A stretch of 63,865 bases of DNA, counting the filler, from Vicugna vicugna (lineage: Eukaryota), in the NCBI GenBank assembly GCA_013265495.1. It is 83 parts of 78 records of this genome, joined end to end, with 100 filler letters (N's around TTAATTAATTAA, not from the genome) between each part and the next. Parts side by side here need not be neighbours in the genome. Positions count along the whole stretch, not along the records: positions 2,961 to 4,098 come from MU060218.1; positions 4,199 to 4,964 come from MU060219.1; positions 5,065 to 5,857 come from MU060220.1; positions 5,958 to 6,699 come from MU060221.1; positions 6,800 to 7,493 come from MU060222.1; positions 7,594 to 7,738 come from MU060222.1; positions 7,839 to 8,579 come from PNXW01013384.1; positions 8,680 to 9,162 come from MU060224.1; 75 more parts are not named here. One strand, 5' to 3'. The notes under the pieces were generated by a model. It was not told the DNA's origin, did no database searches, and saw only the letters and a program-made list of their open reading frames with translations. The position numbers were made by a program, and so were the translations under genes. Of this stretch, positions 2,961 to 63,638 are shown one piece after another (position 1 is the stretch's first letter; the number at the start of each line of letters is the position of its first letter).

Positions 2961-4098
2961 TCTTCAGTCACAGGTGTTCCCTGTCCGGGGAAGTCAGAGA
3001 AATAAATTCCCTGACCTTCAAAAGGCAGCCTCTGACACTGGGATATCCTGCAATCACCCCTAGCATTCCCTGGCACAGAGACATTAGGAAAATCCTCAGG
3101 GGAAACGAGCTTAGGCATTCCGTTGGATCCCACGCGCTGCCGACCNNNNNNNNNNNNNNNNNNNNNNNNNNNNNNNNNNNNNNNNNNNNNNNNNNNNNNN
3201 NNNNNNNNNNNNNNNNNNNNNNNNNNNNNNNNNNNNNNNNNNNNNNNNNNNNNNNNNNNNNNNNNNNNNNNNNNNNNNNNNNNNNNNNNNNNNNNNNNNN
3301 NNNNNNNNNNNNNNNNNNNNNNNNNNNNNNNNNNNNNNNNNNNNNNNNNNNNNNNNNNNNNNNNNNNNNNNNNNNNNNNNNNNNNNNNNNNNNNNNNNNN
3401 NNNNNNNNNNNNNNNNNNNNNNNNNNNNNNNNNNNNNNNNNNNNNNNNNNNNNNNNNNNNNNNNNNNNNNNNNNNNNNNNNNNNNNNNNNNNNNNNNNNN
3501 NNNNNNNNNNNNNNNNNNNNNNNNNNNNNNNNNNNNNNNNNNNNNNNNNNNNNNNNNNNNNNNNNNNNNNNNNNNNNNNNNNNNNNNNNNNNNNNNNNNN
3601 NNNNNNNNNNNNNNNNNNNNNNNNNNNNNNNNNNNNNNNNNNNNNNNNNNNNNNNNNNNNNNNNNNNNNNNNNNNNNNNNNNNNNNNNNNNNNNNNNNNN
3701 NNNNNNNNNNNNNNNNNNNNNNNNNNNNNNNNNNNNNNNNNNNNNNNNNNNNNNNNNNNNNNNNNNNNNNNNNNNNNNNNNNNNNNNNNNNNNNNNNNNN
3801 NNNNNNNNNNNNNNNNNNNNNNNNNNNNNNNNNNNNNNNNNNNNNNNNNNNNNNNNNNNNNNNNNNNNNNNNNNNNNNNNNCGAGCTTAGGCATTCCGTT
3901 AGAACCTACGCGCTGCCAACAGTTGGTGGAACCTCCCCACGCTCAGGATTCCGGAAACATTGTCAGTGTGTGGGCGAGCTCGATAGACAACTCCACGCAG
4001 CTCTCTTCAGTCACAGGTGTTCCCTGTTGGCCGAAGTCTGAGAAATAACTTCGGTGACCTTGGGGAGGCAGCCTCGGACACTGGGATATCCTGCAATC
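2961..4098 (+). repeat. SatA satellite (266-267 bp monomer)
   Basis: Carries the diagnostic GGGATATCCTGCAATC, GGCACAGAGAC and CTCAGGATTCCGGAA motifs shared with many other fragments. Confidence 0.93.
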
Positions 4099-4198
4099 NN
4101 NNNNNNNNNNNNNNNNNNNNNNNNNNNNNNNNNNNNNNNNNNTTAATTAATTAANNNNNNNNNNNNNNNNNNNNNNNNNNNNNNNNNNNNNNNNNNNN

Positions 4199-4964
4199 AA
4201 ACTTAAAGAAGGAATCAGATATCCAAGTACAGGAAGCTAAGAGTGTTCCAAACAGGAAGAATACAATTACACCCACACCAATATATTTAATTAAGATGGT
4301 GAGAGTCAAGGATAAAGAAATTATCCTAAGGACAGCAAGAGAATAGTAAAGTATGAGTTACAAGGGAATCCCCATAAGGCTACCAGCTGATTTCTCTACA
4401 CAAATACTACAGCCCAGAAGGGAGTGGCAAGATATATTCAGTCCTGAATGAAAAAAATTATATACAGTAGTATACTTTGACCAGCAATGCTATTCTATTT
4501 GGTAAATATAGAAATAAAGGATTTCACAACAAGAAAAAGCTTAAAGAGTTTAGTAACACTAGACCCATGCTAAAAGAATTATTGAAAGGTCTACTTTAAA
4601 AAGAAAAGCAGCAGGATGCTACAGAAATATGAAACTCACAACTTGAAATGTGATGATTCATGAATTACAAATAAAATAAACAAAAAATTTTAAAACAAGG
4701 CATACAAATCATTGAGAGTCGGAGAGGGAGGCAGGAAAATAGAGAAATTTTTNNNNNNNNNNNNNNNNNNNNNNNNNNNNNNNNNNTAGGATGGGTATCA
4801 TCTTACTATCCGTTTAATAGAAGCAGTTATAGTAATGGCCTAATGGACTTATAAAAAAGGGTAACAAGAAGACAAAAACTTATCAGGAAGTCACTAAAAC
4901 TAAGTAAAATTCTTGACACTACAAAGGAAAATAACCAAACCATAAAAGGAAGATGAAAGGAACA
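4199..4964 (+). mobile_element. LINE-1 ORF1 3' half and inter-ORF spacer, decayed
   Basis: Segments read DIQVQEA..VPNR, KDKEIILRTARE, YKGIPIRLPADFSTQILQPRREWQDIF, the L1 ORF1 consensus, with stops and frameshifts. Confidence 0.9.
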
Positions 4965-5064
4965 NNNNNNNNNNNNNNNNNNNNNNNNNNNNNNNNNNNN
5001 NNNNNNNNTTAATTAATTAANNNNNNNNNNNNNNNNNNNNNNNNNNNNNNNNNNNNNNNNNNNN

Positions 5065-5857
5065 CCTGATATTACGTGATCAGTAGAGTTGAAGAAGTAC
5101 AGTAAAAAACAATAAGTACCATTTTCAGTTCCAAAGATATTGAAGACCCAAAAGATAAGCTTTCAAACAACTAGACTGCAAAACGCTATCCAGACCAAGT
5201 GTTGAAAATGGAGGTCAGGAAAACACTGAAGAACAAAAGGGTCTCAGAATCACAAAAGGCAGAATANNNNNNNNNNNNNNNNNNNNNNNNNNNNNNNNNN
5301 NNNNNNNNNNNNNNNNNNNNNNNNNNNNNNNNNNNNNNNNNNNNNNNNNNNNNNNNNNNNNNNNNNNNNNNNNNNNNNNNNNNNNNNNNNNNNNNNNNNN
5401 NNNNNNNNNNNNNNNNNNNNNNNNNNNNNNNNNNNNNNNNNNNNNNNNNNNNNNNNNNAGCAAGTGCAAACCAATGAAAACATTGGTGTTGAATCCTGGG
5501 TTAAGACAGGGCATGAAAGACTAGAATTCATTAGAGTCCCAGATGGAAAAGCAAGAGATAAAAAACAAAAAATGTCTGAGAACTTATCTGTTGGAATATC
5601 AGACTGAAACTTGCTGAAAGCCAAGAAAGAGTCATCTATGCAAATTCAGGAAGTACACAGCGTCCAAAGGAGGTGGAATCCCTATAGACCTTCCAGCAGC
5701 GGTATGATTCAAATCAACAAAGTTCACGAATATCCCATTGATTTAAAATGCACCTGGAGGAAACAACATAGTCACAATGGAACCTGCAGAGAGGTTTCAG
5801 CTGATATCTCGTCAGCAATATTGCAGGACATGGAGGAGTGCCAGGACATAATTCACA
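5065..5857 (+). mobile_element. Heavily decayed L1 ORF1, member of a secondarily amplified family
   Basis: IQEVHSVQRRWNPYRP and VSADISSAILQDMEECQDII align to L1 ORF1. 5616-5850 closely matches 59135-59370. Confidence 0.75.
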
Positions 5858-5957
5858 NNNNNNNNNNNNNNNNNNNNNNNNNNNNNNNNNNNNNNNNNNN
5901 NTTAATTAATTAANNNNNNNNNNNNNNNNNNNNNNNNNNNNNNNNNNNNNNNNNNNN

Positions 5958-6799: not shown

Positions 6800-7040
6800 C
6801 CGTGGTCTAAGCTTTGAAGGGCCCGTGGTCTGGGGGAGCTCCTATTTAGCAGACACACTTGTCAGTGAGCAGATGAGGATGGAGGATCCCAGGAAAGGCG
6901 CTTCTCAAAAGCCCAGAAGACTCAAGTTTCTCCCGTGGTCTAAGCTTTGAAGGGCCCGTGGTCTGGGGGAGCTCCTATTTAGCAGACACACTTGTCAGTG
7001 AGCAGATGAGGATGGAGGATCCCAGGAAAGGCGCTTCTCA
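6800..7040. repeat. Exact ~108-bp direct duplication (period 133 bp)
   Basis: CCGTGGTCTAAGCTTTG...GGCGCTTCTCAA starts at both 6800 and 6933. Confidence 0.9.
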
Positions 7041-7593
7041 ATCCGACCCCTGGGCTCTCGGGAGCCACATAGTCAGCATTGGTGGCCAAACCTTTCCACC
7101 GGGTGAGATGAACCATGGTGGGGGTGAGAATCCAAGGTCCTAGGTCGGCCAAAGCATCTTCCTTCACGGTTGACTGGGGTGTTGGAGACGAGACTCNNNN
7201 NNNNNNNNNNNNNNNNNNNNNNNNNNNNNNNNNNNNNNNNNNNNNNNNNNNNNNNNNNNNNNNNNNNNNNNNNNNNNNNNNNNNNNNNNNNNNNNNNNNN
7301 NNNNNNNNNNNNNNNNNNNNNNNNNNNNNNNNNNNNNNNNNNNNNNNNNNNNNNNNNNNNNNNNNACCACAGACCCTGAATGCCCACTGGCTGAAGCAGA
7401 GTGGAAGCTACGGCTCCTTTAGCAATCCCTATGTCCAACAGATCCAGGTGAGCCAGCTACTTAGGAGAAGGCCATGTTGTTCTGATCTGATACNNNNNNN
7501 NNNNNNNNNNNNNNNNNNNNNNNNNNNNNNNNNNNNNTTAATTAATTAANNNNNNNNNNNNNNNNNNNNNNNNNNNNNNNNNNNNNNNNNNNN

Positions 7594-7838: not shown

Positions 7839-8579
7839 CAGGGGTCACAGTAATTCCCAAGTTGTGGGTTGTAGTTTAAATATGTCCACTACCCATTGAG
7901 ATGCACACGCTAATACATAGTTTTAGAGCCCAAATCCCACTTTCAACCACACACTGGCCTAGGCAAACCATCAGGGAAGACAAGCAAAGGGATTCTATTA
8001 AAACCAAGACGCTGATGTCAGTTGGAGGAACTACCCCACCCTCAGGATACTGGAACCCAACCTTGTGTGGTGGGGAGATTTGAAGCCCCACTCCACGCAG
8101 ATGAATGGGTGCTCAGGTGTTTCCCTTTATGGAGAATTCATCTAAATACTTCCTCAGTCCATCGGGGACACTCGCTACTATTTGGCCTCAAAGACCAAAC
8201 CCCAGGTTTCTCTCAGAGTCAGTCCTAGGGAAACACTCAAACAAGCTAAGGGATTCCATTAGAACCCAGCAGCTTCTGACACCTGAAATTGCCAGTCCAC
8301 ACTCAGGATAGCAGAAAACTTCTTCATGTGTGTTCTTTTGGTTGGGATACAGAGTCCACGCTTTTTTCAAAGAGCACAGGTGTTCCCATGTTGTGGGGTT
8401 TTGGTTAATATCCTCCAAATCCCATGGAGAAGCACTCGCTAATACTTGGAATTAGAGCCCAACCCACCCTTTCCCCAGCACTCCGTATCAGGCAACCAAA
8501 CAGGGTAGACAAGTTAAGCGATTTTATAATAAAAAAGCCATGCTCTCAGTTGGAGGAGGCTGCCCACTCTCAGGATAAC
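7839..8579 (+). repeat. SatB satellite (diverged relative of SatA)
   Basis: CTCAGGATA anchors at 8041, 8302 and 8569 (spacing 261 and 267). The last monomer closely matches 45379-45609. Confidence 0.85.
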
Positions 8580-9262: not shown

Positions 9263-10399
9263 ACATGGAATGCAGAACATAGAATATAGAATATAGAATA
9301 CAGAATAATGAATATAGAATTTACAAGATAGAATGTACAACTCAGAATATAGAATAGAGAATATACAACAGAGAATTTAGAACATGGAATGCAGAACATA
9401 GAATATAGAATATAGAATACAGAAGACTGTATATATTACTTAGAATATAGAATGTAGAACACAGAATATAGAATAAAGAATAGAGAATTTAGAACATGGA
9501 ATGCAGAACATAGAATATAGAATATAGAATACAGAAGACTGTATATATTACTTAGAATATAGAATGTAGAACACAGAATATAGAATAAAGAATAGAGAAT
9601 TTAGAACATGGAATGCAGTACACAGTATTTAGAATATAGAATACAGAAGACTGTATATATTACTTAGAATATAGAATGTAGAACACAGAATATAGAATAT
9701 AGAATACGGAATGCAGAATATAGTATGTAGAATATAGAATGAAGTACACAAAGTGTAGAATATAAAATAGAGAATATAGAACCCAGAATTTAGAACACGG
9801 AATGTAGAACACAGAATTTAGAATATAGAATTCAGAATACTGAATATAGAAATTAGGATATAACATGAAGAACACAGAATATAGAATAAACATTAGAGAA
9901 TATAGAGACCAGAAATTAGAACATGGAAAAAGACACAGAATATAGAATATAGAATACAGAATACTGAATATAGNNNNNNNNNNNNNNNNNNNNNNNNNNN
10001 NNNNNNNNNNNNNNNNNNNNNNNNNNNNNNNNNNNNNNNNNNNNNNNNNNNNNNNNNNNNNNNNNNNNNNNNNNNNNNNNNNNNNNNNNNNNNNNNNNNN
10101 NNNNNNNNNNNNAGAACAAAGAATTCAGATTATAGAATACAGAATACCTAATATAGGATTTAGAATATAGAATGTAGAACACAGAATTAAAAATATAGAA
10201 TACAGAATACTGAATATAGAATTTAGAACATGGAATGAAGAACACAGAATTTAGAATGCAGAATACAGAATACTGAATATAGAATTTAGAATATAGAATG
10301 CAGAACAGAGAATACAGAATATAAAATACAGAATACTGAATATAGAATTTACACCATGGAATGCAGAACACAAAATTTAGAATATAGATAAAGAATATA
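9263..10399 (+). repeat. SatE heptamer satellite with a 112-bp sub-period
   Basis: AGAAGACTGT at 9421, 9533 and 9645 (112 = 16x7). Confidence 0.92.
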
Positions 10400-10860: not shown

Positions 10861-10916
10861 TTACAAAATTTTTAATCAAAGTTTTCTTTTCATATTATTT
10901 GCAATAAGTTAGAAGC

Positions 10917-13167: not shown

Positions 13168-13733
13168 GTAGAACACAGAATATAGAATATAGAATAGAGA
13201 GTTTAGAACATGAAATGCAGAACTCACAATTTGGAATATAGAATACAGATTACTGAATATAGAATTTGGAATATAGAATGTAGATCACAGAATATATAAT
13301 GTAAAATACGGAATGCAGAATATAGAACAGAATATAGAATTTAGAACACAGATTATAGAATATAGAATTNNNNNNNNNNNNNNNNNNNNNNNNNNNNNNN
13401 NNNNNNNNNNNNNNNNNNNNNNNNNNNNNNNNNNNNNNNNNNNNNNNNNNNNNNNNNNNNNNNNNNNNNNNNNNNNNNNNNNNNNNNNNNNNNNNNNNNN
13501 NNNNNNATTGAAGCCAGATTTTGGAACTTGGAAAACAGAACTCAGAATTTAGATTATAGAATACAGAATACTTAATAAACAATTAAAACTTTGAATGAAG
13601 AACACAGAATATAGTAGATAAAACACATAATACTGAATAAATAATTTAGAATATCGAATGAAGGAAACAGAATAAAAAATATAGCTTTGAGAATTTTGAA
13701 GCCAGATTTTGGAACATGGAAATCAGAACTCAG
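13168..13733 (+). repeat. SatE heptamer satellite (more degenerate distally)
   Basis: AGAATAT register. Confidence 0.88.
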
Positions 13734-20913: not shown

Positions 20914-21397
20914 TGGTTCCCTTGGTATATGTCAGTCAACCGTACCCTTTTGTTACTTTTTTGTCTGTTTGATTCTTTGTTGGCCTGCTTCTCGTTTGTT
21001 TAGCCAAATATCATGCCATTCATCTCTCCGTTCGCTTCAAAGAGAGAGTCATATAAGCTGATTCACTTAAGAAAGTGCTTCCAATCACCTAGGATTTCCT
21101 GCTTCCCTCTCCCATCATTAGGGTTTTGTTGTCCTCCTTGCCTTATTGTTTCTTCTTTGCCACTCAAGCTCTTCTTGCATTTCCAATAATGGTTTGCTTC
21201 TTTTCCATTTCATCTTGCTATGCTGCTTTTCTATTCAGGGGAATATTCTCAACCTTTCTTTTAGGAAAAGTTTCGAACTGCTGAATTCTTTTAAGATTTG
21301 CCTGTCTGTGAAATTCTCTATCTCTGCCATTATTAGAAATGGCGGTCATGTTTCATAGGCTACCAGAGATGGCAGCATTTTGCCATTCAGGATATGG
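20914..21397 (-). mobile_element. Amplified decayed-L1 family member (paralog of 59360-59886)
   Basis: The reverse complement aligns end to end with the distal part of fragment 59135-59886. Confidence 0.85.
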
Positions 21398-21497: not shown

Positions 21498-22131
21498 ATT
21501 TCAGTTTAAAGCTACATATTTGGAGAGACTTTCGTTCATCTAACACAATTGAAACTTGTTTCTGATAGAACCCTCACCCTGTTGTCTCTGTCTGTTTCTT
21601 AGTGCCGATTTTAATTTCCTGAAATTTTCAGTATAAACATAGTTGGAGGTTGTGCCTCCTCATATATATGTTTGTAGTGTAGTTTCCAAATGAAAAGCAT
21701 CTTTGTGTTCCCAAAAAGCTTGTTGATTGTTGGTTTTCACACTCACTTCTGTGTAATAATTTAGCATGTGTATTGTCATTCGTCTATCTAGCATTAATTG
21801 AATGTTTGTCATTTGTAACACTTACTCTTGTTTGTCATTATGTTTCCTTGAGCTTCTTAGAAGTTCATGCATTTTTCACTGTTAAATCGAGTTCGAGCTA
21901 TTACCTCCCAGTACATATCTATATAGTTTTTTTCCAGTAGAAAAAACTATGTGTTCACATCAAGCTAGGTGATTCACGGATTTCACACAAACTTTTTTCT
22001 CAGAGTTCAGCATGTGAGCAGACGTCCATTCATCTAACCGAAAGTGAATGGTTTGATGGTTTGCAGTCACTTACTCTAGTTTCTCTGTATGTTTTTTAGT
22101 GTCAATTTGATGTTCATGCAATTTTCACTGT
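21498..22131 (+). repeat. Degenerate, AT-shifted SatC monomers
   Basis: CAGCATGTG..GACGTCCATTCATC, TTACTCTAGTTTCTC, TTCACTGT and CCTCCC anchors in SatC order. Confidence 0.8.
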
Positions 22132-22231: not shown

Positions 22232-23066
22232 CCAGGTTCTAAAATCGGACATTTGACACCAGAATACACTCTTTGATCTAATTCTCACCAACACACATGT
22301 AATTTACATTGTTTACATAACCATGGAATTCCGTATTACGAGCATGTNNNNNNNNNNNNNNNNNNNNNNNNNNNNNNNNNNNNNNNNNNNNNNNNNNNNN
22401 NNNNNNNNNNNNNNNNNNNNNNNNNNNNNNNNNNNNNNNNNNNNNNNNNNNNNNNNNNNNNNNNNNNNNNNNNNNNNNNNNNNNNNNNNNNNNNNNNNNN
22501 NNNNNNNNNNNNNNNNNNNNNNNNNNNNNNNNNNNNNNNTGTAAGTTACATTGTTTACATAACCGTGGCATTCCGTATTCGGAACGTGTTTCATGAATCA
22601 TGGATTCCTCAAACATGCATTTCTGAGTTGTGAACATGCGCATGACAGTTGTTTCAACCATAAAAGGTTACCTATGCACTTTGAAATATTTACTTTGACT
22701 TCATAACTTCTCAGTGTCACCAGTTTCAAGAGTTACAGTTTGATCCCAGAAAAACCCTCTTGGAGGGAATTCTACCCCAGAGATATGTAATTTGTATAGA
22801 TTCCATCAACATGATATTCCATGTTCCGTACAGGATACATGCATGACGGATTCGACAAACATGCATTCCTGAGTTGAGAACATGTGCATTACTGATCTTT
22901 CANNNNNNNNNNNNNNNNNNNNNNNNNNNNNNNNNNNNNNNNNNNNNNNNNNNNNNNNNNNNNNNNNNNNNNNNNNNNNNNNNNNNNNNNNCATTTTTCA
23001 CAATACTTCTGGAGTGATTTGAAACTAATACATATGTAAGTTGCATTAATTCCATCAACATGGCAT
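22232..23066 (+). repeat. SatD satellite (monomer types D1-D2-D3)
   Basis: TTGTGAACATGCG at 22628 and TTGAGAACATGTG at 22874 (246 bp apart). Confidence 0.88.
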
Positions 23067-23846: not shown

Positions 23847-24752
23847 GGCAATCATGCGTTTCTGACTTGTGAGCATGTGGATTACAGATCTATCACCCTC
23901 CGAACAATGCGTATATAGACTTCAAAATATTTATTGTGACTTCATAGGTTTTTCCTATCACCAGGGTCTAAAATCGGACATATGGCACCAGAAAACACTC
24001 TTTGAGCGAATTCTCACCAATACACATGTAATTTACATTGTTTACTTAACCATGGAATTCCGTATTACGAGCAATTTTCATGCATCACGGATTCCGCAAA
24101 CATGCATTTCTGAGTTGTGAACATGCGCATGACTNNNNNNNNNNNNNNNNNNNNNNNNNNNNNNNNNNNNNNNNNNNNNNNNNNNNNNNNNNNNNNNNNN
24201 NNNNNNNNNNNNNNNNNNNNNNNNNNNNNNNNNNNNNNNNNNNNNNNNNNNNNNNNNNNNNNNNNNNNNNNNNNNNNNNNNNNNNNNNNNNNNNNNNNNN
24301 NNNNNNNNNNNNNNNNNNNNNNNNNNNNNNNNNNNNNNNNNNNNNNNNNNNNNNNNNNNNNNNNNNNNNNNNNNNNNNNNNNNNNNNNNNNNNNNNNNNN
24401 NNNNNNNNNNNNNNNNNNNNNNNNNNNNNNNNNNNNNNNNNNNNNNNNNNNNNNNNNNNNNNNNNNNNNNNNNNNNNNNNNNNNNNNNNNNNNNNNNNNN
24501 NNNNNNNNNNNNNNNNNNNNNNNNNNNNNNNNNNNNNNNNNNNNNNNNNNNNNNNNNNNNNNNNNNNNNNNNNNNNNNNNNNNNNNNNNNNNNNNNNNNN
24601 NNNNNNNNNNNNNNNNNNNNNNNNNNNNNNNNNNNNNNNNNNNNNNNNNNNNNNCTATCACCCTAAGGCGTATATAGACTTCGAAATATTTACTCTGACT
24701 TCAAAGATTTTTCCTATCACCAGGATCTAAAATCGGACATATGGCACCAGAA
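23847..24752 (+). repeat. SatD satellite (D1-D2, gap, D1)
   Basis: Matches 47217-47757. GCGTATATAGACTTC recurs after the gap. Confidence 0.88.
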
Positions 24753-31603: not shown

Positions 31604-31703
31604 NNNNNNNNNNNNNNNNNNNNNNNNNNNNNNNNNNNNNNNNNNNNTTAATTAATTAANNNNNNNNNNNNNNNNNNNNNNNNNNNNNNNNNNNNNNNNN
31701 NNN

Positions 31704-38223: not shown

Positions 38224-39197
38224 TTTCTGGGTTCTATATTCTCTATTCTCCATTCTATATTCTGTGTTGTACATTCTACATTCTAAATTCTATATTCAGT
38301 ATTCTATATTCTATATTCTAAATTCTGTGCTCTACATTGTATATACATTTTCTATATTCAGAATTCGGTATTCTATATTCTATATTCTGTGTTCTGCATT
38401 CCATGTTCTCAATTCTGGGTTTTGTATTCTGTTTTCCGTATTCTATATTCTGTGTTCTACATTCTATATTCTCTATACTTTATTCAGCATTCCGTATTCT
38501 ATATTCTGGGTTCTACATTGTATATTCTAAATTCTATATTCAGTATTCTGTATTCTATATTCTAAATTCTGTGCTCTACATTGTATATACATTTTCTATA
38601 TTCAGAATTCGGTATTCTATATTCTATATTCTGTGTTCTGCATTCCATGTTCTGAATTCTGGGTTTTGTTTTCTGTTTTCCTTATTCTATATCCTGAGTT
38701 CTACATTCTATATTCTAAATTATGTATTCAGTATTCTCTATTCTATATTCTAAATTCTGTGTTCTGCATTCCATGTTCTGAATTCTGGGTTTTGTTTTCT
38801 GTTTTCCTTATTCTATATCCTGAGTTCTACATTCTATATTCTAAATTATGTATTCAGTATTCTCTATTCTATATTCTAAATTCTGTGTTCTTCATTCCAT
38901 ATTCTAAATTCTGGGTTCTCTATTCTCTATTCTCTTTTCTATATTTTGTGTCCTACATTCTATATTCTAAATTCTATATTAAGTATTCCGTATGCTATAT
39001 TCAATTCTGTGTTATGCATTCCATGTTCTAAACTCTGGGTTCTCTAATCTATATTCTATATTCTTTATTCTGTGTTCTACATTCTATATTCTAAAAATAC
39101 CATGTTCTCAATTCCTGGTTTTGTATTCTGTTTTACATATTCTATATTCTGCTTCTACATTCTATATTCTGTATTCTATATTTTGTATTCCGTATTC
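38224..39197 (-). repeat. SatE heptamer satellite with 244-bp and 126-bp sub-periods
   Basis: CAGAATTCGG at 38359 and 38603. GTTCTGCATTCCATGTTCTG at 38635 and 38761. Confidence 0.92.
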
Positions 39198-41230: not shown

Positions 41231-41647
41231 ATTCTGTATTCTATATTCTTAATTATGTGTTGTGCATTCCATGTTTTCAATTGTTTATTTTGTATTCTGT
41301 TTTCCATATTCTATATTCTGTGTTCTACATTCTATGTTCTGTATTCTATACTCTGCATTCCGTATTCTATATTCTATATTCTGTGATCTACATTCTATAT
41401 TCTAAATTGTATATTCAGTATTCCGTATTCTATATTCTATACTCTGTGTTCTATATTCTATATTCTAAAATTATATTCAGTATTCTGTGTTCTATATTCT
41501 AAATTCTGTGCTCTGCATTCCATGTTCTATATCCTGGGTTCTCTATTCTATATTCTATATTCTATATAACTGTGTTCTTCATTCTATATTCTAAATACTC
41601 TTTTCAGTTTTCTTCATTCTATATTCTAAATTCTGTGTTGTGCATTA
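41231..41647 (-). repeat. SatE heptamer satellite
   Basis: ATATTCT register. Confidence 0.92.
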
Positions 41648-42903: not shown

Positions 42904-44068
42904 TAGAATGCAGAACACAGTATATAGAATATGGAATACTGAATACTGTATATACAATTTAGAACATAGAATGCAGAACACAGAATTTACAATATAGAAT
43001 ACAGTATACTGAAAACAGCATGCAGAATATAGAATGTAGAACACAGATTATAGAATATAGAATACGGAATTCAGAATATAGAATATAGAACACAGAATAT
43101 AGAATATGGAAAACAGAATACAGAACCCAGAATTTAGCCCATAGAATGCAGAACACAGAATTAAGACTATAGAATACAGAATGCTGAATATAGAATTTAG
43201 AACATAGGATGCAGAACACAGAATATGGAATACAGAATACAGAACGCAGGCTTCAGAACATGGAATTCGAAAGACAGAATACATAATATAGAATAAAGGA
43301 ATAGAATGTTGTATATAGAATGTAGAACACAGAATATAGAATACAGAATGCAGTATGCAGAATTTAGAACAAGGAATTCAGAACAGAGAATTTAGAATAA
43401 AGAGTTCAGAATGCACAATATAGAACGTAGAATATAGAATGNNNNNNNNNNNNNNNNNNNNNNNNNNNNNNNNNNNNNNNNNNNNNNNNNNNNNNNNNNN
43501 NNNNNNNNNNNNNNNNNNNNNNNNNNNNNNNNNNNNNNNNNNNNNNNNNNNNNNNNNNNNNNNNNNNNNNNNNNNNNNNNNNNNNNNNNNNNNNNNNNNN
43601 NNNNNNNNNNNNNNNNNNNNNNNNNNNNNNNNNNNNNNNNNNNNNNNNNNNNNNNNNNNNNNNNNNNNNNNNNNNNNNNNNNNNNNNNNNNNNNNNNNNN
43701 NNNNNNNNNNNNNNNNNNNNNNNNNNNNNNNNNNNNNNNNNNNNNNNNNNNNNNNNNNNNNNNNNNNNNNNNNNNNNNNNNNNNNNNNNNNNNNNNNNNN
43801 NNNNNNNNNNNNNNNNNNNNNNNNNNNNNNNNNNNNNNNNNNNNNNNNNNNNNNNNNNNNNNNNCACAGAATTTAGAATATAGAATACAGATTACTGAAT
43901 ATAGAATTTAAAATATAGAATGTAGAACACAGAATTTAGAATATAGAATACTTAATACTGGATATAGAATATAGAATATAGAATGTAGAACACAGAATTT
44001 AGAATATACAACACAGAATACTAAATATTGTATTTAGAATATAGAATGTGGAACACAGAATATAGAAT
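42904..44068 (+). repeat. SatE heptamer satellite
   Basis: AGAATAT register. Confidence 0.92.
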
Positions 44069-45378: not shown

Positions 45379-46250
45379 CACGCATTTTTCAAGGAGCACA
45401 GGTATTCCCATGTTGTGGGTTTTAGGTTAATAACCTCCAAATCCCATGGAGGGGCACTCGCTAATACTTGGATTTAGAGCCCAACCCACCCTTTCCCCAG
45501 CACTCCGTATCAGGCAACCTAACAGGGTAGACAAGTTAAGCGGTTTTATAAGAACCAAGGCCCTGCTCTCAGTTGGAGGAGGCTGCCCACTCTCAGGATA
45601 ACTGTGCAANNNNNNNNNNNNNNNNNNNNNNNNNNNNNNNNNNNNNNNNNNNNNNNNNNNNNNNNNNNNNNNNNNNNNNNNNNNNNNNNNNNNNNNNNNN
45701 NNNNNNNNNNNNNNNNNNNNNNNNNNNNNNNNNNNNNNNNNNNNNNNNNNNNNNNNNNNNNNNNNNNNNNNNNNNNNNNNNNNNNNNNNNNNNNNNNNNN
45801 NNNNNNNNNNNNNNNNNNNNNNNNNNNNNNNNNNNNNNNNNNNNNNNNNNNNNNNNNNNNNNNNNNNNNNNNNNNNNNNNNNNNNNNNNNNNNNNNNNNN
45901 NNNNNNNNNNNNNNNNNNNNNNNNNNNNNNNNNNNNNNNNNNNNNNNNNNNNNNNNNNNNNNNNNNNNNNNNNNNNNNNNNNNNNNNNNNNNNNNNNNNN
46001 NNNNNNNNNNNNNNNNNNNNNNNCTAAAGTAACACTCAGGGAACAGAATCTAAGGGATACTTATAGAACCCAGGTGCTGCTGTCAGTTTGAGGAACCTCT
46101 CCAAACTCATAATACGAGAACAATTCTTCGTGTGTGTGCTTGATGTAGGGAAACAGCCAAAGCATTTCTCTGGGGGCACCTTTATTACATGGTTGTGGGT
46201 TGAAAGTTAAAAACCCACATCCCATGGATAAGCTCTAGCTAATACTTGGT
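45379..46250 (+). repeat. SatB satellite
   Basis: 45379-45609 is near-identical to 8357-8579. The distal part is another monomer type. Confidence 0.87.
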
Positions 46251-47216: not shown

Positions 47217-48345
47217 AATTCCAACAACATGGCCATCCCGGGTTCCTTACATGCTACATGTGTGACGGATTCAGCAATCATGCGTTTCTGAATTGTGAGC
47301 ATGTGGATTACTGACCTTTCATCCACCGAAATAGGCGTATATAGACTTAGAAATATTTACTGTGACTTCATAGGTTTTTCCTATCTCCAGGTTCGAAAAT
47401 CAGACATTTGGCACCAGAAAACACTCTTTGAGCGAATTCTCACCAATACAAATGTAAATTACATTGTTTACATAACCGTGGCATTCCGTACTACGAACAT
47501 GTTTCATGCATCATGGATTCCTCAAACATGAATTTCTCAGTTGTGAACATGCGTATGACTGATGTTTCAACCACCAAACAAGATACCTAAGCAGTATGAA
47601 ATATTTACTTTGACTTCANNNNNNNNNNNNNNNNNNNNNNNNNNNNNNNNNATCACATTTTCAGAAAAACCCTCTTGGGGCGAATTCTACCCTAAAGATA
47701 TATAATTTGAAAAGATTCCATCTAGATGATATTCCGTGTTCCGTACATGCTACATACNNNNNNNNNNNNNNNNNNNNNNNNNNNNNNNNNNNNNNNNNNN
47801 NTTAATTAATTAANNNNNNNNNNNNNNNNNNNNNNNNNNNNNNNNNNNNNNNNNNNNGTGCGCATGACTGATATTTCAACTACCAAAAAATTTACCTATA
47901 AGATTGATATATTTATTTTGTCTTCGTATCTCCGTCCTATCACCAGTTTCAAGAATGAAATTTTGATCCCAGAAAAACTCTCTTGGAGCATATTTTACCC
48001 TAGAGATATGTAATTTCAGTAGATTCCATATACATGGAATTCCATGTTCCTTTTATTCTACATGCGTGACGTATTCGACAAACATGCATTCCTGAGTTGA
48101 GAGCATGTGAATCACTGATCTTTCATTCTCTATAAAAGGAATGTTTTCATCTAGACACGTGTACTCATTTTCACAAGCTTTACCAACAACCAGTTTCGAA
48201 TTCATGCATTTTTCACAGAAAAATTCATATGGAGCGATTTCCCTTAACAGATATGTAATTTACATGAATTCCATCAACATGGCATTCTGGGTTCCGTACA
48301 TGCTACATGCAAGACGGATTCAGAAAACATGCGTTTCTGAGTTGT
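47217..48345 (+). repeat. SatD satellite (fragments 47217-47757 and 47858-48345)
   Basis: Anchors at 47293/47541 (248 bp) and 48097/48342 (245 bp). Confidence 0.9.
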
Positions 48346-48445: not shown

Positions 48446-48838
48446 AGCTAAAGGATATTATTAGAACCCAGGCGCTGCTGTCACTTGAAAATGCGGGCCC
48501 ACACTCAGGACACCTGAGCACGTCTTTGTGTGTGTGTTGGAAGTGGGGAAACAGAGTCCATGCATCTTTATGCGGGCACAGTTATTCCTAGGTAGATGAT
48601 GTATTTTAAACACCTTCACTGCCCATAGAGAGGCACTGGATATTACTTGGCTTTACAGCCCAACCCCCACCTTCGCTCAAAGCCCNNNNNNNNNNNNNNN
48701 NNNNNNNNNNNNNNNNNNNNNNNNNNNNNTTAATTAATTAANNNNNNNNNNNNNNNNNNNNNNNNNNNNNNNNNNNNNNNNNNNNAAGAACAGTTCTTCA
48801 TGTGTGTGCTGGAGGTGGGGAAAGAGACTCCACGCATT
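48446..48838 (+). repeat. SatB satellite (fragments 48446-48685 and 48786-48838)
   Basis: ATTAGAACCCAGG, CACACTCAGGA and GTGGGGAAA..GAGTCCA motifs. Confidence 0.82.
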
Positions 48839-48938: not shown

Positions 48939-49408
48939 GAGAGATGTTCGTTCATCCAGCACAATGGGAACGGGTTGCAGGAGGAATCCTTACTATGATT
49001 TCTCAGCCTGTTTCCTAGTGCCGGTTTGAAGTGCCTGCCGTTTTCACTGTAAAACCGAGTTGGAGCTTGTACCTCCCCATATATATGTATGGAGTGGAGT
49101 TTGCAACTGAAAAGAAACTTTGNNNNNNNNNNNNNNNNNNNNNNNNNNNNNNNNNNNNNNNNNNNNNNNNNNNNNNNNNNNNNNNNNNNNNNNNNNNNNN
49201 NNNNNNNNNNNNNNNNNNNNNNNNNNNNNNNNNNNNNNNNNNNNNNNNNNNNNNNNNNNNNNNNNNNNNNNNNNNNNNNNNNNNNNNNNNNNNNNNNNNN
49301 NNNNNNNNNNNNNNNNNNNNNNNNNNNNNNNNTATATATATATGGAGTGGTGTTTGAAACTGAAAAGAATCTTTTTATTCCCTTCAAGCTATGTGAAGGA
49401 CGGCTTTC
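48939..49408 (+). repeat. SatC satellite
   Basis: GTTCGTTCATCCAGCAC, GTAAAACCGAGTTGGAGC. Confidence 0.92.
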
Positions 49409-50151: not shown

Positions 50152-51070
50152 CTGAGGGTTTTCCAAATGTCTCTGTGCCAGGGTATGCTAGGGGGGATTG
50201 CAGGATAACACAGTGTCAGAGGCTGCCCCCCCAAGGTCAGGGAAGGTATTTCTCGGACTTCCCCGAACAGGGAACACCTGTGACTTAAGAGAGCTGCGTG
50301 GAGTTGTCTCTCGAGCTNNNNNNNNNNNNNNNNNNNNNNNNNNNNNNNNNNNNNNNNNNNNNNNNNNNNNNNNNNNNNNNNNNNNNNNNNNNNNNNNNNN
50401 NNNNNNNNNNNNNNNNNNNNNNNNNNNNNNNNNNNNNNNNNNNNNNNNNNNNNNNNNNNNNNNNNNNNNNNNNNNNNNNNNNNNNNNNNNNNNNNNNNNN
50501 NNNNNNNNNNNNNNNNNNNNNNNNNNNNNNNNNNNNNNNNNNNNNNNNNNNNNNNNNNNNNNNNNNGTTTTCCGAATGTCTCTGTGCCATGGAATGCTAG
50601 GGGGGTTTGCAGGATATTCCTGTGACAGAGGATGCCTCTCCAAGGTCAGGGAAGGTATTTATCGCACTCCCCGAACAGGGAACACTTGTGAATGAAGAGA
50701 GCTGCGTGGAGTTGTCTCTGGAGCTCACCCACGCCCTGACAATGTTTCAGGAATCCTGAGTGTGGGGAGGTTCCATCAGCGGTCGGCAGCGCGTGGGTTC
50801 TAACTGAAATATAAGCTCGTCTCCCCTGAGGGTTTTCCTAATGTCTCTGTGCCAGGGAATGCTAGGGGGGTTTGCAGGATATCCCAGTGACAGAGGCTGC
50901 CTCCCCAAGGTCAGGGAAGGTATTTCTCGGACTTCCCCGAGCATGGAACACCTGTGAATGAAGAGAGCTGCGTGGAGTTGTCTCTGGAGCTCACCCACGC
51001 CCTGACAATGTTTCAGGAATCCTGAGTGTGGGGAGGTTCCATCAGCGGTCGGCAGCGCGTGGGTTCTAAC
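50152..51070 (-). repeat. SatA satellite
   Basis: GCTGCGTGGAG at 50701 and 50967 (266 bp apart). Confidence 0.95.
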
Positions 51071-51170: not shown

Positions 51171-51855
51171 GCCGACCGTTGGTGGATCCTCCCCACGATC
51201 AAGATTCCGGAACCAAATGTCAGTTCGTGGCGGAGATCGAGAGACAATTCCACGCAGCTCTCTACAGTCACAGGTGTTCCCTGTTCGGCGAAGTCCGAGA
51301 AAAACCTTCCCTTAACTTGGGGAGGCAGCCTCTGACACTGGGATATCCTGCAATAACCCCTAGCATTCCCTGGCACAGAGATATTAGGAAAACACTCAGG
51401 GGAGACTCGCATAGGCTTTCCGTTAGAACCCACGAAAAAAATTCGGGGAAGGAAATATCTTCCCTGAACTTGGGGAGGCAGCCTCTGACACTGGGATATA
51501 CTGCAATCACCCCTAGTATTCCCTGGCACAGAGACTTTAGGAAAACACTAAGGGGAGGCGAGGCGAGCNNNNNNNNNNNNNNNNNNNNNNNNNNNNNNNN
51601 NNNNNNNNNNNNNNNNNNNNNNNNNNNNNNNNNNNNNNNNNNNNNNNNNNNNNNNNNNNNNNNNNNNNNNNNNNNNNNNNNNNNNNNNNNNNNNNNNNNN
51701 NNNNNNNNNNNNNNNNNNNNNNNNNNTTCCCTGACCGAGTCAGCCTCTGACACTGGGATATCCTACAATCACCCCTAGCATTCCCTGGCACACAGACTTT
51801 AGGGAAACCCTCAGGGGAGATGAGCTTAGGCTTTCCGTTAGAACCCAACCCACGC
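51171..51855 (+). repeat. SatA satellite with one internally deleted 153-bp monomer
   Basis: GGAGGCAGCCTCTGACAC at 51321 and 51474. Confidence 0.92.
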
Positions 51856-55131: not shown

Positions 55132-55537
55132 ACACAGAATATAGAATAAAGAATACGGAATTAAAAAATATAGAATGTCGAATTTAGAAAATAGAATGTA
55201 GAACACAAAATATAGAATCAAGAATAACGAATGCAGTATATAGGATGTAGAATATAGAATGAAGAATACAAAATATAGAATATATAAAGAGAATATGCAA
55301 CACACAATTTAGAACATGGAATGCGGAACATAGAATTTTGAATATAGAATACAGAATACTAAATATATAATAAATTAGAATATAGAATACAGTATATGGA
55401 ATATATAATATACAATACAGAATATTGAATAAAGAACACAGAATATAGAATACGGTAAACTGAATACAGAACCCAGAATTTAGAACATCGAATAGAATAT
55501 AGAGTGAAGAACACAGAATATAGAGTAAAGAATAGAG
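55132..55537 (+). repeat. SatE heptamer satellite
   Basis: AGAATAT register. Confidence 0.9.
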
Positions 55538-59134: not shown

Positions 59135-59886
59135 GAAAGCCAAGAAAGAACCATCTATGCGAATTCAGGAATTACACAGAGTCCAAAGGAGGTGGAATAC
59201 CAATAGACCTACCAGCAGCTGTTTGATTCAAATCAACAAAGTTCATGAGCATCCCAGTGACTTAAAATGCACCTGGAGGAAAGCAACATAGTCACAAGAG
59301 AACCTCCAGAGGGGTTTCAGCTGATATCTGGGCAGCAATTGTGCAGGACAGGTAGGAGTGCCAGGACTTAGACCATGTACTTAATGGCCAAATGCTGCCA
59401 TCTAGGGAAGCCTATGTCACATGACCGCTGTTTCTAATAATGGCAGAGCTAGAGAATTCCACAGACCGGCAAATCTTAAAAGAATTCATCAGTTCGAGAA
59501 AAAAAAAAAAGAATTCAGCAGTTTGATTCTTATCCTAAAAGGCAGGATGAGAATTCTCTCCTGAATAGAAAAGCCGCAAGATGAAATGGAAAGAAGAAAA
59601 CCATTATTGGAAATGCAAGAGGAGAATGAGTGGCAAAGAAGAAACAAGAACAAGGCAAGGAGGACATCAAAACCCTAAAGATGGGAGAGGGAAGCAGGAA
59701 ATCTTAGGTGATTGGAAGCACTATCTAAAGTGAATCCGCTTATATGACTCTCTGTTTGAAGCAAACGGAGAGATGCATGGCCTGACGTGTTTGCCAAACA
59801 AACGAGAAGCAGACCAACAAAGAATCCAACAAAAAAACTATCACCAAAAGGGTACGGTTGGCTGAAATATACCAAGGGAACCATGA
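59135..59886 (+). mobile_element. Amplified decayed-L1 (ORF1 and spacer) family member
   Basis: Overlaps 5616-5850(+) and 20914-21397(-) at high similarity. Confidence 0.82.
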
Positions 59887-59986
59887 NNNNNNNNNNNNNN
59901 NNNNNNNNNNNNNNNNNNNNNNNNNNNNNNTTAATTAATTAANNNNNNNNNNNNNNNNNNNNNNNNNNNNNNNNNNNNNNNNNNNN

Positions 59987-60712
59987 TCCATACATATATA
60001 TGGAGTGGTACAAGCTCCAACTCGGTTTTACTGTTCAAACCGCAGGAACTTTTAGCCTGCACCGGGAAACAGACTGAGAAACCAGAGTAAGGGTTTCTCC
60101 TGCATCCCGTTCCGTTTGTGCTGCATGAACGAACGTCTCTTCACATGTTAAGGTCTGAGAGATATGTGTGTGTGAAATCCGTCCTTCACCCAGCTTGAAG
60201 GGAACCCAAAATTTCTTTTCAGTTGCCAACCCCACACCATACATATATATGGGGAAAAATAAACCTTCACCCAGCTTGAAGGGAACCCAAAATTTCTTTT
60301 CAGTTGCCAACCCCACACCATACATATATATGGGGAAAAATAAACACCAACTAGGGTTTACAGTGAAAAAGGCAGGCACTTCAAACCGGCAGTAGGAAAC
60401 ATACTTAGAAAACTTAGATAATGTTTCTCCAGCGACACGTTCCCATTGTGCTGGATGGACGAAAGTCTCTCCACATACTCAGTTCGGAGAGATAAGTGTG
60501 TGTGAAAGCCATCCATCAACTAGATTTATGGGAACACAAAGTTTCTTTTCGTTGCAAACCCCTCTCCATAAATATGTATGGGGAGGAAGAAGCTCCAGCT
60601 CAGTTTTACAGTGAAAAAACAGGCACTTCAAACCGGCAGTAGGAAACATACTTAGAAAACTTAGATAATGTTTCTCCAGCGACACGTTCCCATTGTGCTG
60701 GATGGACGAAAG
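59987..60712 (-). repeat. SatC satellite with an internal exact 81-bp tandem duplication
   Basis: AGGCACTTCAAACC at 60374 and 60621 (247 bp apart). CCTTCACCCAGCTTG at 60183 and 60264. Confidence 0.92.
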
Positions 60713-60812
60713 NNNNNNNNNNNNNNNNNNNNNNNNNNNNNNNNNNNNNNNNNNNNTTAATTAATTAANNNNNNNNNNNNNNNNNNNNNNNNNNNNNNNN
60801 NNNNNNNNNNNN

Positions 60813-62216
60813 CAACTCCAGCACACACACGAAGAACTCTTCGGCTATCCTAAGTGTAGGGAGGCTCTTCAAACTGACGGCAGCACATGGGATCTAATAT
60901 AATCTCTTGGATTGACATCCCTGATTGATTCCTTTGGCCGTGATGTGAGTTAAGGTGTGATTGGGCACTAAACCAAAGTAATAGCGAGTGCCTCTCTATG
61001 AGCAGTGGAAGTGTTTACCTACATCCCCAACCTGGGAACACCTGTGATCCAACAAATAAACGTGGACTTTGTTTCCCCACCTCCAGGACACACATGAAGA
61101 ACTTTNNNNNNNNNNNNNNNNNNNNNNNNNNNNNNNNNNNNNNNNNNNNNNNNNNNNNNNNNNNNNNNNNNNNNNNNNNNNNNNNNNNNNNNNNNNNNNN
61201 NNNNNNNNNNNNNNNNNNNNNNNNNNNNNNNNNNNNNNNNNNNNNNNNNNNNNNNNNNNNNNNNNNNNNNNNNNNNNNNNNNNNNNNNNNNNNNNNNNNN
61301 NNNNNNNNNNNNNNNNNNNNNNNNNNNNNNNNNNNNNNNNNNNNNNNNNNNNNNNNNNNNNNNNNNNNNNNNNNNNNNNNNNNNNNNNNNNNNNNNNNNN
61401 NNNNNNNNNNNNNNNNNNNNNNNNNNNNNNNNNNNNNNNNNNNNNNNNNNNNNNNNNNNNNNNNNNNNNNNNNNNNNNNNNNNNNNNNNNNNNNNNNNNN
61501 NNNNNNNNNNNNNNNNNNNNNNNNNNNNNNNNNNNNNNNNNNNNNNNNNNNNNNNNNNNNNNNNNNNNNNNNNNNNNNNNNNNNNNNNNNNNNNNNNNNN
61601 NNNNNNNNNNNNNNNNNNNNNNNNNNNNNNNNNNNNNNNNNNNNNNNNNNNNNNNNNNNNNNNNNNNNNNNNNNNNNATAGAATCCCTTACTTGACTTCC
61701 CTAAGTGTTTTCCTAGGCCTAGCAGTAAGCGATGGTGGGGGATGGGCTCTAAAGCCAAGTATTAGCGAGTGCATCTCTTTGGGCCGTGGAGGGTTTTAAA
61801 ATACTTCCCCAACCTTGGAAAACCTGTGCCCCATAAAGATGCGTGGAATCTGTTTCCCCACCTCCAGCACACACACGGAGACGTGCTCAGGTATCCTGAT
61901 TGTGGGGAGGCTCCTCCAAATAACAGCAGCACCTGGGTTCTAATAGAAACCCTTAGCTTGTCTTCCCTGATGGCATGCCTAGCCTGGAGAGTGGGGGAAA
62001 GTGCGGGTTGGGTTTGAAGTCCAAGTAGCAACGAGTGCCCCCCGATTTTCTGAAGAAGTACTTAGAGGATTTCACGCTAATGTGGAACACCTGTGCCCCC
62101 ATTCATCTGTGTGGACTGGGTACACACACCTCCCCCAAACACAAGTCTAGGTTCCGGAATCCTGAGTGAGAGGAAGATCCTCCAACTGACAGCAGCGCCT
62201 GCGTTCTAATAGAATA
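60813..62216 (-). repeat. SatB satellite
   Basis: GGTTCCGGAATCCTGAGTG..CCAACTGACAGCAGCGCCTGCGTTCTAATAGAAT is homologous to the SatA core. Adjacent monomers are divergent. Confidence 0.87.
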
Positions 62217-62859
62217 NNNNNNNNNNNNNNNNNNNNNNNNNNNNNNNNNNNNNNNNNNNNTTAATTAATTAANNNNNNNNNNNNNNNNNNNNNNNNNNNN
62301 NNNNNNNNNNNNNNNNAAAGAGTAGACAGGTGATAAATGTCTTCTTTGTTACTGATGAAGCGAAGTTCTCCATGAACTTTAGGGCTGTGGGAAAATCCAT
62401 GTCATGATACTGTGTCCCAGAATTAGAGACTCACGCTGTCCCATGTAGCTCTGGGCCACAGTGAGCCTTCCCTTGAGAGGACCTGCCCCTTCATGCACAG
62501 GGCTGTCCTGCCATGGAGCTGAGCATGCCGGGTGCTTCTGAAGGGTGGCCAACACTAGAGGGAAAGGAAGGGTTACAAATGCCCTGCTTGTCTCCCCGGA
62601 CTCACACCTCACTCTGTTAGTGTGAGGAGGGCTACCTGTGGGCCAGGGGCCAGGAGTGTGAAGGAAGAAGCACACTCCATGGCCCAGAGGAGTGGTTAGG
62701 AGGCATCACCTCCCTCGGTTTAAACAGGTGGTCAGATGGAAGAGAAGGGTGCTCCCCAAGAGTTTATGAAAGTAGAAATAAGGATTTTCTTTGGGAATTA
62801 GACTAGCCAGGAAACACATAAGATGATTAGAAGGGAGACTTGTAAATCACTTTGATATT

Positions 62860-63040
62860 AAGTTGACGTTTGTTGAGCACCAAAAATGTGCTACATTCTT
62901 TTCTGAGTGTTTTACAGAAATGAATCCTTCAATCTTCTCAACAAGCGAGTAAGGAAGGTTTGATTTATATCTCAGGTTTACAGTGTTTAAACTTGAGTAA
63001 GTTGTCCAAAATCACAAACTAGCAAGTGGCAGAGCTGGTA
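62860..63040 (-). mobile_element. MIR
   Basis: TTTGTTGAGCAC..ATGTGC..AATCTTCTCAACAA..GTCCAAAATCACAAACTAGCAAGTGGCAGAGCTGG. Confidence 0.75.
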
Positions 63041-63140
63041 NNNNNNNNNNNNNNNNNNNNNNNNNNNNNNNNNNNNNNNNNNNNTTAATTAATTAANNNN
63101 NNNNNNNNNNNNNNNNNNNNNNNNNNNNNNNNNNNNNNNN

Positions 63141-63638
63141 GACAACTCCATGCAGCTCTCTTCATTCACAGGAGTTCCATGTTCGTGGAAGTCCGAGAAA
63201 TAAATTCCCTGACCAAGGGGAGGCAGCCTCTTTCACTGGGATATCCTGCAAACCCCCCTAGAATTCCCTGGCACAGAGACATTAGGAAAACCCTCAGGGG
63301 AGACGAGCTTCGGCTTTCCGTTAGAACNNNNNNNNNNNNNNNNNNNNNNNNNNNNNNNNNNNNNNNNNNNNTTAATTAATTAANNNNNNNNNNNNNNNNN
63401 NNNNNNNNNNNNNNNNNNNNNNNNNNNGCGCTGCCGACCGTTGGTGGAACCTCCCCACGCTCAGGATTCCGGAACCATTGTCAGTGCGTGGGGGAGCTCG
63501 AGAGACAACTCCACGCAGCTCTCTTCAGTCACAGGTGTTCCCTGTTCTTGAAAGTCCGAGAAATACCTTCCTGACCTTGAGGAGGCAGCATCAGACACTG
63601 GGATACCCTGCAATCAACCCTAGCATTCCCTGGCACAG
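63141..63638 (+). repeat. SatA satellite (fragments 63141-63327 and 63428-63638)
   Basis: SatA motifs. Confidence 0.93.

Follow-up and report, generated by a model that had tools for sequence, protein, structure and literature searches.

Five vicuña satellite families as probable descendants of a single tandem unit

Introduction

Do the satellite families found on short scaffolds of the Vicugna vicugna assembly GCA_013265495.1 descend from one ancestral repeat, and did they diverge from it in one direction? The original prediction, made on the window (the whole 63,865-nucleotide stretch of DNA analysed here), was that four families, SatA to SatD, share a single ancestor and changed from CpG-rich A to AT-rich D while keeping their unit length. 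In primate alpha satellite, one ancestral unit underlies young homogeneous arrays, multimers of monomers that are 60–70% alike, and diverged relics.

Among camelids, a 248-bp candidate centromere tandem repeat of Lama glama (45% GC, 2.9% of the llama genome) has been named by abundance alone, with higher-order structure given as 'not found' (Melters et al. 2013, PMC4053949). In alpaca, VpaSat16-1836 (listed size 1863 bp) and VpaSat15-3718 are presented as monomers of 1.8 kb and 3.7 kb, with neither primers nor FISH, in a paper whose available part leaves a ~266-bp subunit unmentioned and takes centromeric satellites out of consideration (Mendoza-Cerna et al. 2026, PMC13751797). SAC-SAT is the NOR-associated satellite of South American camelids (as cited in PMC13751797 and PMC13477059). 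By title and abstract opening, we found no earlier report of kinship among these camelid satellites, the subscription papers (Vidal-Rioja 1987, 1994) and Dfam/Repbase lying outside the scope of this search; the word 'satellite' is absent from the available part of PMC6598621.

Results

Satellite families in the window

Positions 2961–63638 are not one locus: an artificial spacer (N44/12-mer/N44) links the 83 scaffolds found there. Pure satellite accounts for 28 of the 83 scaffolds, each holding a single family and no other DNA, and no two families adjoin on any scaffold. Besides A, B, C and D we distinguish SatE, a diverged C-like fifth family that had no separate name in the original prediction. 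Unit lengths are 266–267 bp in A, 261–267 in B, 247–249 in C and 245–248 in D; rather than one conserved length, as had been proposed, there are two classes, 261–267 bp (A, B) and 245–249 bp (C, E, D). In real copies, GC content falls from A (0.548) through B (0.478), C (0.445) and D (0.372) to E (0.347), and the CpG observed/expected ratio ranks D 0.76, A 0.61, C 0.48, E 0.42 and B 0.30. Per kilobase, CpG is most frequent in A (45.5), followed by D (25.8), C (23.7) and B (17.2). No subrepeats were detected inside the unit (17–188 of 200 shuffles scored as high), and Rfam gave no matches in the window.

SatA is a young, homogeneous family, with 23 segments (5758 bp) on 13 scaffolds, spread from 2961 to 63638 on both strands without flanking DNA and with a mean pairwise identity of 0.87 (253 pairs). 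Representative tandem arrays lie at 34352–34925 (+; TRF period 267 bp, 90% matches) and 50567–51070 (+; TRF period 266, 94% matches); the range starts with a SatA scaffold at 2961–4098 (−; 0.88–0.89 identity to a SatA monomer) and ends with two more at 63141–63638 (−; 0.90 identity). Its unit equals in length that of SAC-SAT, reportedly 267 bp, a possible counterpart of SatA.

SatB is represented by seven segments (2324 bp) on five scaffolds, with a longest contiguous stretch of 741 bp. Three consecutive diverged monomers of 261–267 bp at 7839–8579 (−) show neighbour identities of 0.58–0.68, compared with 0.93 to a same-type copy at 45379. Further SatB scaffolds occupy 45379–46250 (−), 48446–48838 (−; two short scaffolds) and 60813–62216 (+). 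The last contains positions 62150–62216, for which homology to SatA had been proposed, and here 53 of 66 columns match the SatA consensus; between the full consensuses 187 of 262 columns match, and A–B homology is beyond doubt (0/300 shuffles as high). The same scaffold shares an exact 19-mer with alpaca VpaSat16, around which ~130 flanking bases agree by eye within the first 400 letters of that repeat, and the first 400 letters of VpaSat15 are also SatB-like by eye. Divided by seven and fourteen, the VpaSat lengths resemble the ~266-bp SatB unit (1863/7 = 266.1; 3718/14 = 265.6). A search with four of the 26 primers in Table 1 of PMC13751797 gave no match in the window at ≤3 mismatches.

SatC (eight segments, 2405 bp, five scaffolds) includes a scaffold at 35026–36737 (+; period 247–249 bp, TRF period 249, 90% matches), two scaffolds at 30096–30706 (−; 0.86 identity to a SatC monomer), one at 48939–49408 (+) and, at 59987–60712 (−), a subtype carrying a ~168-bp deletion and a perfect 81-bp duplication. 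In length, tandem arrangement (TRF) and GC content (247–249 bp, 44.5%) SatC corresponds to the llama repeat (248 bp, 45%), and the two share an exact 40-mer, as listed for Lama glama in the supplement of PMC4053949. By eye count, the SatC consensus is ~96% identical to the llama repeat (eight substitutions and one indel); the relatives A, B, D and E are absent from the rows examined in that source. SatE, at 21498–22131 (+), consists of AT-rich monomers whose neighbours are 66% alike, and its consensus matches that of C in 183 of 244 columns.

SatD (eight segments, 1936 bp, four scaffolds) resembles a higher-order repeat of three units (739 bp), judging from the order and similarity of its monomers. 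With slashes marking assembly gaps, the types run D1 / D1-D2-D3 / D3 at 22232–23066, D3-D1-D2 / D1 at 23847–24752, D3-D1-D2 / D2 at 47217–47757 and D2-D3 at 47858–48345 (all +), so that the D1-D2-D3 order is kept at 7/7 contiguous junctions and on 4/4 scaffolds. Identity is 0.80–0.94 within a type and 0.57–0.85 between types, for type references drawn from these same four scaffolds and with three flanking pieces of just 17–26 nt, one of them settled by 23 versus 22 matches. Diverged monomers in a fixed order, with same-position copies more alike than neighbours, agree with the definition of a higher-order repeat in PMC4053949. The longest contiguous SatD stretch, 488 bp, is shorter than the 739-bp unit, and a tandem full unit was not seen within these scaffolds. 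The colinearity originally described between C and D was borne out, all eight words lying at the same offset ±1 base between C (consensus or the copy at 35902) and the D copy at 47296–47543, and under each of four scoring schemes the C–D consensus score exceeded 300/300 dinucleotide shuffles (z 15.7–17.5). As for A and B, there is no doubt that C and D are homologous.

Homology across the AB/CED split

Seven short words had been cited as linking A directly to C. Their offsets are as originally given, but their coverage near one diagonal is at chance (65 versus a shuffled mean of 64.7; 28/60 shuffles as high), and TTGCA at 114 is present in the C copy at 35902 and absent from the C consensus. 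In a five-way alignment, four of the seven are in register (TGAGC, GGGTT, TTTCCTA and CCTCCCCA), CAGC and GTGCC are 6–7 columns off and TTGCA is 2 off. The A–C consensus alignment was significant in no scheme (25–220 of 300 shuffles as high), and on both counts we rejected this direct A–C evidence. Consensus tests of A–E, A–D and B–D against shuffle controls were also not significant; in profile form, weak signals were obtained for A–C and A–E (2/150 shuffles as high in each) and B–D (3/150).

Common descent is supported instead via SatB, the apparent bridge from A to C/E/D. When the B and C consensuses were aligned circularly on both strands, none of 300 shuffles scored as high in any of four schemes (z 7.2–8.3), nor did any in larger sets of 3000 and 1000 (Gumbel p 1e-4), although shuffle controls miss some biases common to satellites; 132 tiles of real window sequence from outside the families scored at most 24.8, compared with 37.6 for B–C. 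The comparison of A/B with C/D against shuffles, proposed with the original prediction, held for B–C, B–E and pooled profiles, but not for A–D. Colinear homology above chance connects the families along the chain A–B–C–(E,D), direct A–D homology being undetectable. Of the profile HMMs, the B model found seven matches in C with nhmmer (best E 1.2e-4, compared with 2.1 in unrelated and 0.033 in reversed segments) and an AB model reached E 0.0028 at best, but the A, C and CED models had no significant match on the other side of the split (best E 0.83, from C to B).

Independently built AB and CED profiles aligned with z 9.8, a score reached in 0/300 column shuffles and 0/300 block shuffles (Gumbel p 8e-6 and 6e-5; 41.9 versus 1.3 for the reversed control), and the signal persisted at three other gap settings (z 7.1–8.6). 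Because the free-end B–C alignment overshoots at its tail, we rechecked with strict circular alignment, in which 0/40 shuffles of the AB–CED comparison scored as high and the best placement was on the plus strand at rotation 0. Three non-overlapping thirds of the AB profile, placed freely on both strands, all fell on the plus strand in register (0, 0 and 12 of 300 shuffles as high), and with disjoint scaffold sets, 6/6 B-set by C-set pairs exceeded 150/150 shuffles, peaking at rotation 0. In an alignment fitted to B and C alone, the held-out A or D letters sided across the split at 43/98 sites (0.44 versus 0.33; 10/1000); another held-out measure was weak (18/44; 155/1000) and the A=D measure was null (6/28 sites; 760/1000). 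These many tests were run on the same few copies, with one scaffold for E and four for D. Identity across the split is just 0.41–0.52 after gap fitting, many single monomer pairs score at chance, and single-copy blastn gave nothing across the split better than E 0.44 among the matches listed.

(A,B) and (C,E,D) are two deep branches that stay colinear from end to end of the unit, with strand and register shared, and several small indels part the two length classes. Two independent lineages, whose cross-match would reflect chance, composition or nucleosome-friendly convergence, would accord with the chance-level A–C words, the four non-significant consensus tests, the lack of a blastn link among the matches listed and the two length classes; the B–C and pooled-profile scores above all shuffles, the low reversed and real-DNA controls, and the single strand and register found with every third and with each of the six disjoint set pairs make this improbable. 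We consider it very improbable that homology is partial, with a segment rather than the whole unit shared via inter-array recombination or a common dispersed repeat: the signal is strongest in columns 1–180, and the last third is weaker (z 2.0) with unstable gap placement, but this third and columns 160–266 (4/300) still finish in register, and no non-satellite segment of the window could be tied to any family (best blastn E 0.05 among the matches listed).

Tree and base composition

A monomer phylogeny, proposed earlier as a check, recovered the AB/CED split in 100/100, placing A, on a long stem, next to B and grouping D with C/E; stem lengths are 0.31 for A, 0.05 for B and 0.28 for D, branch lengths that rest on an uncertain deep alignment. 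The SatA copies form a star of near-equal branches on their long stem, which fits a recent expansion.

The tree has no outgroup, and direction is therefore unreadable from it. A polarised history, in which loss of methyl-CpG turned a CpG-rich A-like ancestor stepwise, via B and then C, into an AT-rich D, would agree with the GC ranking A > B > C > D > E, with A having most CpG per kilobase and with D-specific changes being mostly strong-to-weak (28 versus 7). However, D has the highest CpG observed/expected ratio and more CpG per kilobase than B or C, A-specific changes are mostly weak-to-strong (19 versus 4), letters common across the split are 47% GC (by parsimony on the unrooted tree, which leans to the average), and the SatA star beside B fits recent expansion. 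On the CpG figures, branch-specific changes and tree, we rejected the A-to-D CpG-decay series and with it the proposed direction; a polarised history of this kind is quite improbable.

Sequence motifs

A hairpin at the TGAGC junction, promising by eye as a feature of all families, was rejected as such: it was significant just in the C consensus (fold z −3.3, 1/200; centre score 0/150), marginal in A (9/150) and at chance in B, D and E (25, 49 and 69 of 150), and 0/5 real 100-nt copies folded better than shuffles (z −0.15 to −1.23). The CENP-B box core has no exact match in the window and is not enriched, with four one-mismatch occurrences against 2.6 expected, one of them inside a D copy.

Discussion

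The satellite superfamily is real, and it reflects a familiar, ordinary mode of satellite evolution. From the sequence comparisons, A, B, C, E and D very probably form one camelid superfamily that arose from a single non-coding tandem unit of ~250–266 bp. Turnover would have proceeded by unequal exchange and gene conversion, as in the library model and concerted evolution, with one variant occasionally spreading to form an array that is young and homogeneous, as for A out of a B-like pool and C out of a C/E-like one, and older layers persisting as diverged monomers (E) or fixed higher-order repeats (D, the 739-bp 3-mer). SatB has probably been fixed as the published 1863-bp unit, 7 × 266, and base composition would have shifted on separate branches, not in one A-to-D series. 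SatC is the strongest candidate for a functioning centromeric repeat, and for A, B, D and E a place in pericentromeric or NOR-linked heterochromatin is probable.

The superfamily resembles primate alpha satellite in having one ancestral unit, young arrays, multimeric repeats and relics. It differs in unit length (245–267 versus 171 bp), in a deeper split (41–52% identity) and in lacking CENP-B box enrichment, and we claim no sequence relation between the two.

A broader joint reading is possible, though we hold it to be doubtful. The main heterochromatic satellites of camelids, among them the centromere candidate C and, should SatA prove to be SAC-SAT, the NOR-associated one, would be paralogs of one ancient unit with separate roles at the centromere, at the pericentromere and next to the rDNA; the centromeric branch, and no other, would have an imperfect palindrome of ~97 bp and an excess of dyads standing in for the CENP-B box; and the 1.8-kb and 3.7-kb alpaca 'monomers' would be 7- and 14-unit higher-order repeats of that unit. 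If so, centromere turnover would have left in the karyotypically static camelids a layered record on a par with that of primate alpha satellite.

Separately catalogued repeats (the llama 248-bp repeat and VpaSat15/16), together with families for which no description was found, would be brought into one family tree, which predicts hidden ~266-bp subunits inside the two published kilobase 'monomers' and could serve as a scheme for centromere annotation in complete camelid assemblies. Camelids would also become a case in which to test how satellites turn over while the karyotype is conserved. Since the principle is textbook knowledge, the gain is for specialists in camelids and centromeres.

By base pairs in this small, biased window, SatA (5758) and a heptamer family (5672) both exceed SatC (2405).

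Satellite content of the window

The window consists of 83 short scaffolds with 44,382 called bases in total and is not one locus; the scaffolds are separated by an artificial join marker, N44-TTAATTAATTAA-N44, with a 12-base core and stop codons in all six frames, and order and distance across joins carry no meaning. Grouping of the segments by all-against-all blastn placed the tandem satellites SatA and SatB in one cluster of 30 segments, SatC and one diverged, SatC-like stretch (named SatE) in a second of nine, and SatD in its own cluster of eight. Together, these five families account for 13,057 bases. They were found on 28 scaffolds, each with a single family and no flanking DNA, and no two families adjoin on any of them.

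We built one consensus unit per family from the copies inside the window only, and aligned these units as circles, on both strands and under four scoring schemes, in comparison with 300 dinucleotide shuffles. The pairs A-B, C-E, C-D and E-D outscored all 300 shuffles in 4/4 schemes. This confirmed the homology of SatB to SatA proposed in the original prediction, with positions 62150-62216 agreeing with SatA at 53 of 66 columns, as well as the colinearity of SatC and SatD, in which eight words lie at equal offsets, at most one base apart.

SatB bridges the AB and CED groups

The original prediction had also proposed that SatA to SatD may derive from one ancestral unit, linking SatA to SatC through seven short words. 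The words were located as described, but they provide no evidence of homology, as shuffled SatC covers as much in 28/60 trials; in the final alignment, four of the seven were in register and three out. Likewise, the A-C consensus alignment was no better than chance, with 25 to 220 of 300 shuffles scoring as high.

The B-C consensus alignment outscored 300/300 shuffles in every scheme, and 3000/3000 and 1000/1000 in larger shuffle sets (Gumbel p 1e-4), and its score of 37.6 compares with a maximum of 24.8 among 132 real tiles from other segments. Two disjoint sets of SatB copies were compared with three disjoint SatC sets, and every pair scored above 150/150 shuffles and peaked at rotation 0. 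An HMM from SatB alone matched SatC at E 1.2e-4, while HMMs of A, C and CED gave no significant match across the split between the two groups. Pooled AB and CED profiles, each aligned separately within its own group, scored 41.9 against each other, compared to shuffle maxima of 20.2 (300 column shuffles) and 23.0 (300 block shuffles), a result that was stable at three further gap settings; in a strict circular test, 0/40 shuffles scored as high. Thirds of the AB profile, unconstrained in place and strand, all fell on the plus strand and in register, matched by 0, 0 and 12 of 300 shuffles, respectively. When the alignment was fitted to SatB and SatC alone, the SatA and SatD letters unused in the fit sided across the split at 43/98 sites versus 0.33 expected (10/1000); of the separate held-out measures, A=D gave no signal and A=C on its own a weak one.

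On these sequence comparisons, common descent of A, B, C, E and D appears very probable, and the single ancestor is supported by the SatB bridge and the pooled profiles rather than by the A-C words. Against it, cross-split identity is 0.41-0.52, many single-copy pairs across the split score at chance, and an A-D relation was never directly detectable in the comparisons made; the homology tests also draw repeatedly on the same few copies. A satellite superfamily from a single ancestral unit would be of a familiar kind.

Family structure and base composition

A tree of the 26 pieces (out of 88) spanning >75% of the unit, midpoint-rooted for drawing only, separated AB from CED with support 100/100. 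SatA copies formed a star of near-equal copies (stem 0.31), the SatB stem was nearly absent (0.05), and SatD was a clade (stem 0.28), with SatC and SatE unresolved. Mean within-family identity was 0.87 in SatA, 0.84 in SatC, 0.70 in SatD and 0.67 in SatB. Three SatD monomer types followed the fixed order D1-D2-D3 at 7/7 contiguous junctions, their lengths summing to 739 bp; three flanking pieces are short, and no SatD scaffold holds a full tandem of the 739-bp unit. SatB contains distinct types too, one of which occurs twice (0.93 identity). One SatA stretch (51171-51568) is ~113 bp net shorter than the consensus, representing a real variant or a mis-join.

The GC ranking of the families is real; however, it does not form a CpG-decay series, with CpG o/e values of 0.76 in SatD, 0.61 in SatA, 0.48 in SatC, 0.42 in SatE and 0.30 in SatB, and the predicted direction from CpG-rich SatA to AT-rich SatD is not supported. 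By parsimony, which leans toward the average, the letters that the two sides of the split have in common show a GC content of 47%; A-specific changes ran 19 toward GC versus 4 opposite, and D-specific changes 28 toward AT versus 7. Within each branch, GC content is higher in the homogeneous family than in the diverged one (A > B, C > E), a pattern that on an unrooted tree fits either GC-biased conversion in active arrays or AT decay in abandoned ones.

The data show that the units are homologous and colinear, that they fall into two length classes, that some families are homogeneous and others diverged, and that the SatD types are ordered. From established satellite biology, single variants may have burst repeatedly out of an old pool, with earlier layers persisting as diverged monomers or multimers; the library model and concerted evolution of satellites are discussed in PMC13751797.

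Published camelid repeats and a candidate centromeric role

SatA may already be known, a candidate identity being SAC-SAT, the NOR-associated satellite of South American camelids, which has a unit of 267 bp. SatC is already known, and SatB is catalogued, as a longer unit. For SatD, SatE and the shared descent of the five families, no report was found in the literature examined, which was mostly without subscription papers and included no repeat databases. The CENP-B box was not enriched in SatC.

An exact 40-mer of SatC occurs in the Lama glama entry in the supplement of PMC4053949, a 248-bp repeat (45% GC, 2.9% of the genome) that is ~96% identical to the SatC consensus over the whole unit, counted by eye. 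There it is called a candidate centromere repeat because it is the most abundant tandem repeat, and on this abundance argument SatC is the likeliest candidate for the working centromeric repeat. Among the five consensuses, SatC alone showed excess dyads (1/300) and a ~97-bp imperfect palindrome, located across the junction at the anchor word TGAGC (35586-36232; 0/200 shuffles, fold z -3.3 for the consensus); of the real copies folded, including a single SatC copy, none was better than shuffles. The consensus features would be consistent, as a lead only, with the proposal in PMC5889037 that a centromere either arises on dyad-rich DNA or relies on a sequence-specific binder.

A 19-mer of SatB is present in the first 400 letters of alpaca VpaSat16 (PMC13751797), and the lengths of VpaSat16 (7 x 266.1 bp) and VpaSat15 (14 x 265.6 bp) listed there suggest multimers of SatB. 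The llama and alpaca matches together point to a camelid source for the DNA. Positions 59135-59886 (relatives at 5459-5857 and 20914-21397) have an 11-mer and, by eye, ~40 flanking bases in common with alpaca VpaSat12-5280, which is assigned there to a ~5.3-kb short-arm satellite group; 0/4 primers of this group tested matched the window.

Other repeats

A sixth tandem family, at 2046-2860, 9263-10399, 13168-13733, 30807-32567, 38224-39197, 41231-41647, 42904-44068 and 55132-55537, formed a blastn cluster of 14 segments (5672 bp) with a 7-bp AT-rich unit and longer periods of 63 bp and up (112-126 bp). This heptamer family had no link to SatA-SatE among the window segments, and no description of it was found in the literature examined. 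One scaffold (29379-29995) resembles a CpG island (GC 0.69, 54 CpG per 617 bp) and has no relative in the window. Two perfect tandem duplications, at 6800-7041 (period 133 bp) and 60183-60345 (period 81 bp), both with 100% matches, are probably assembly or gap-filling artefacts.
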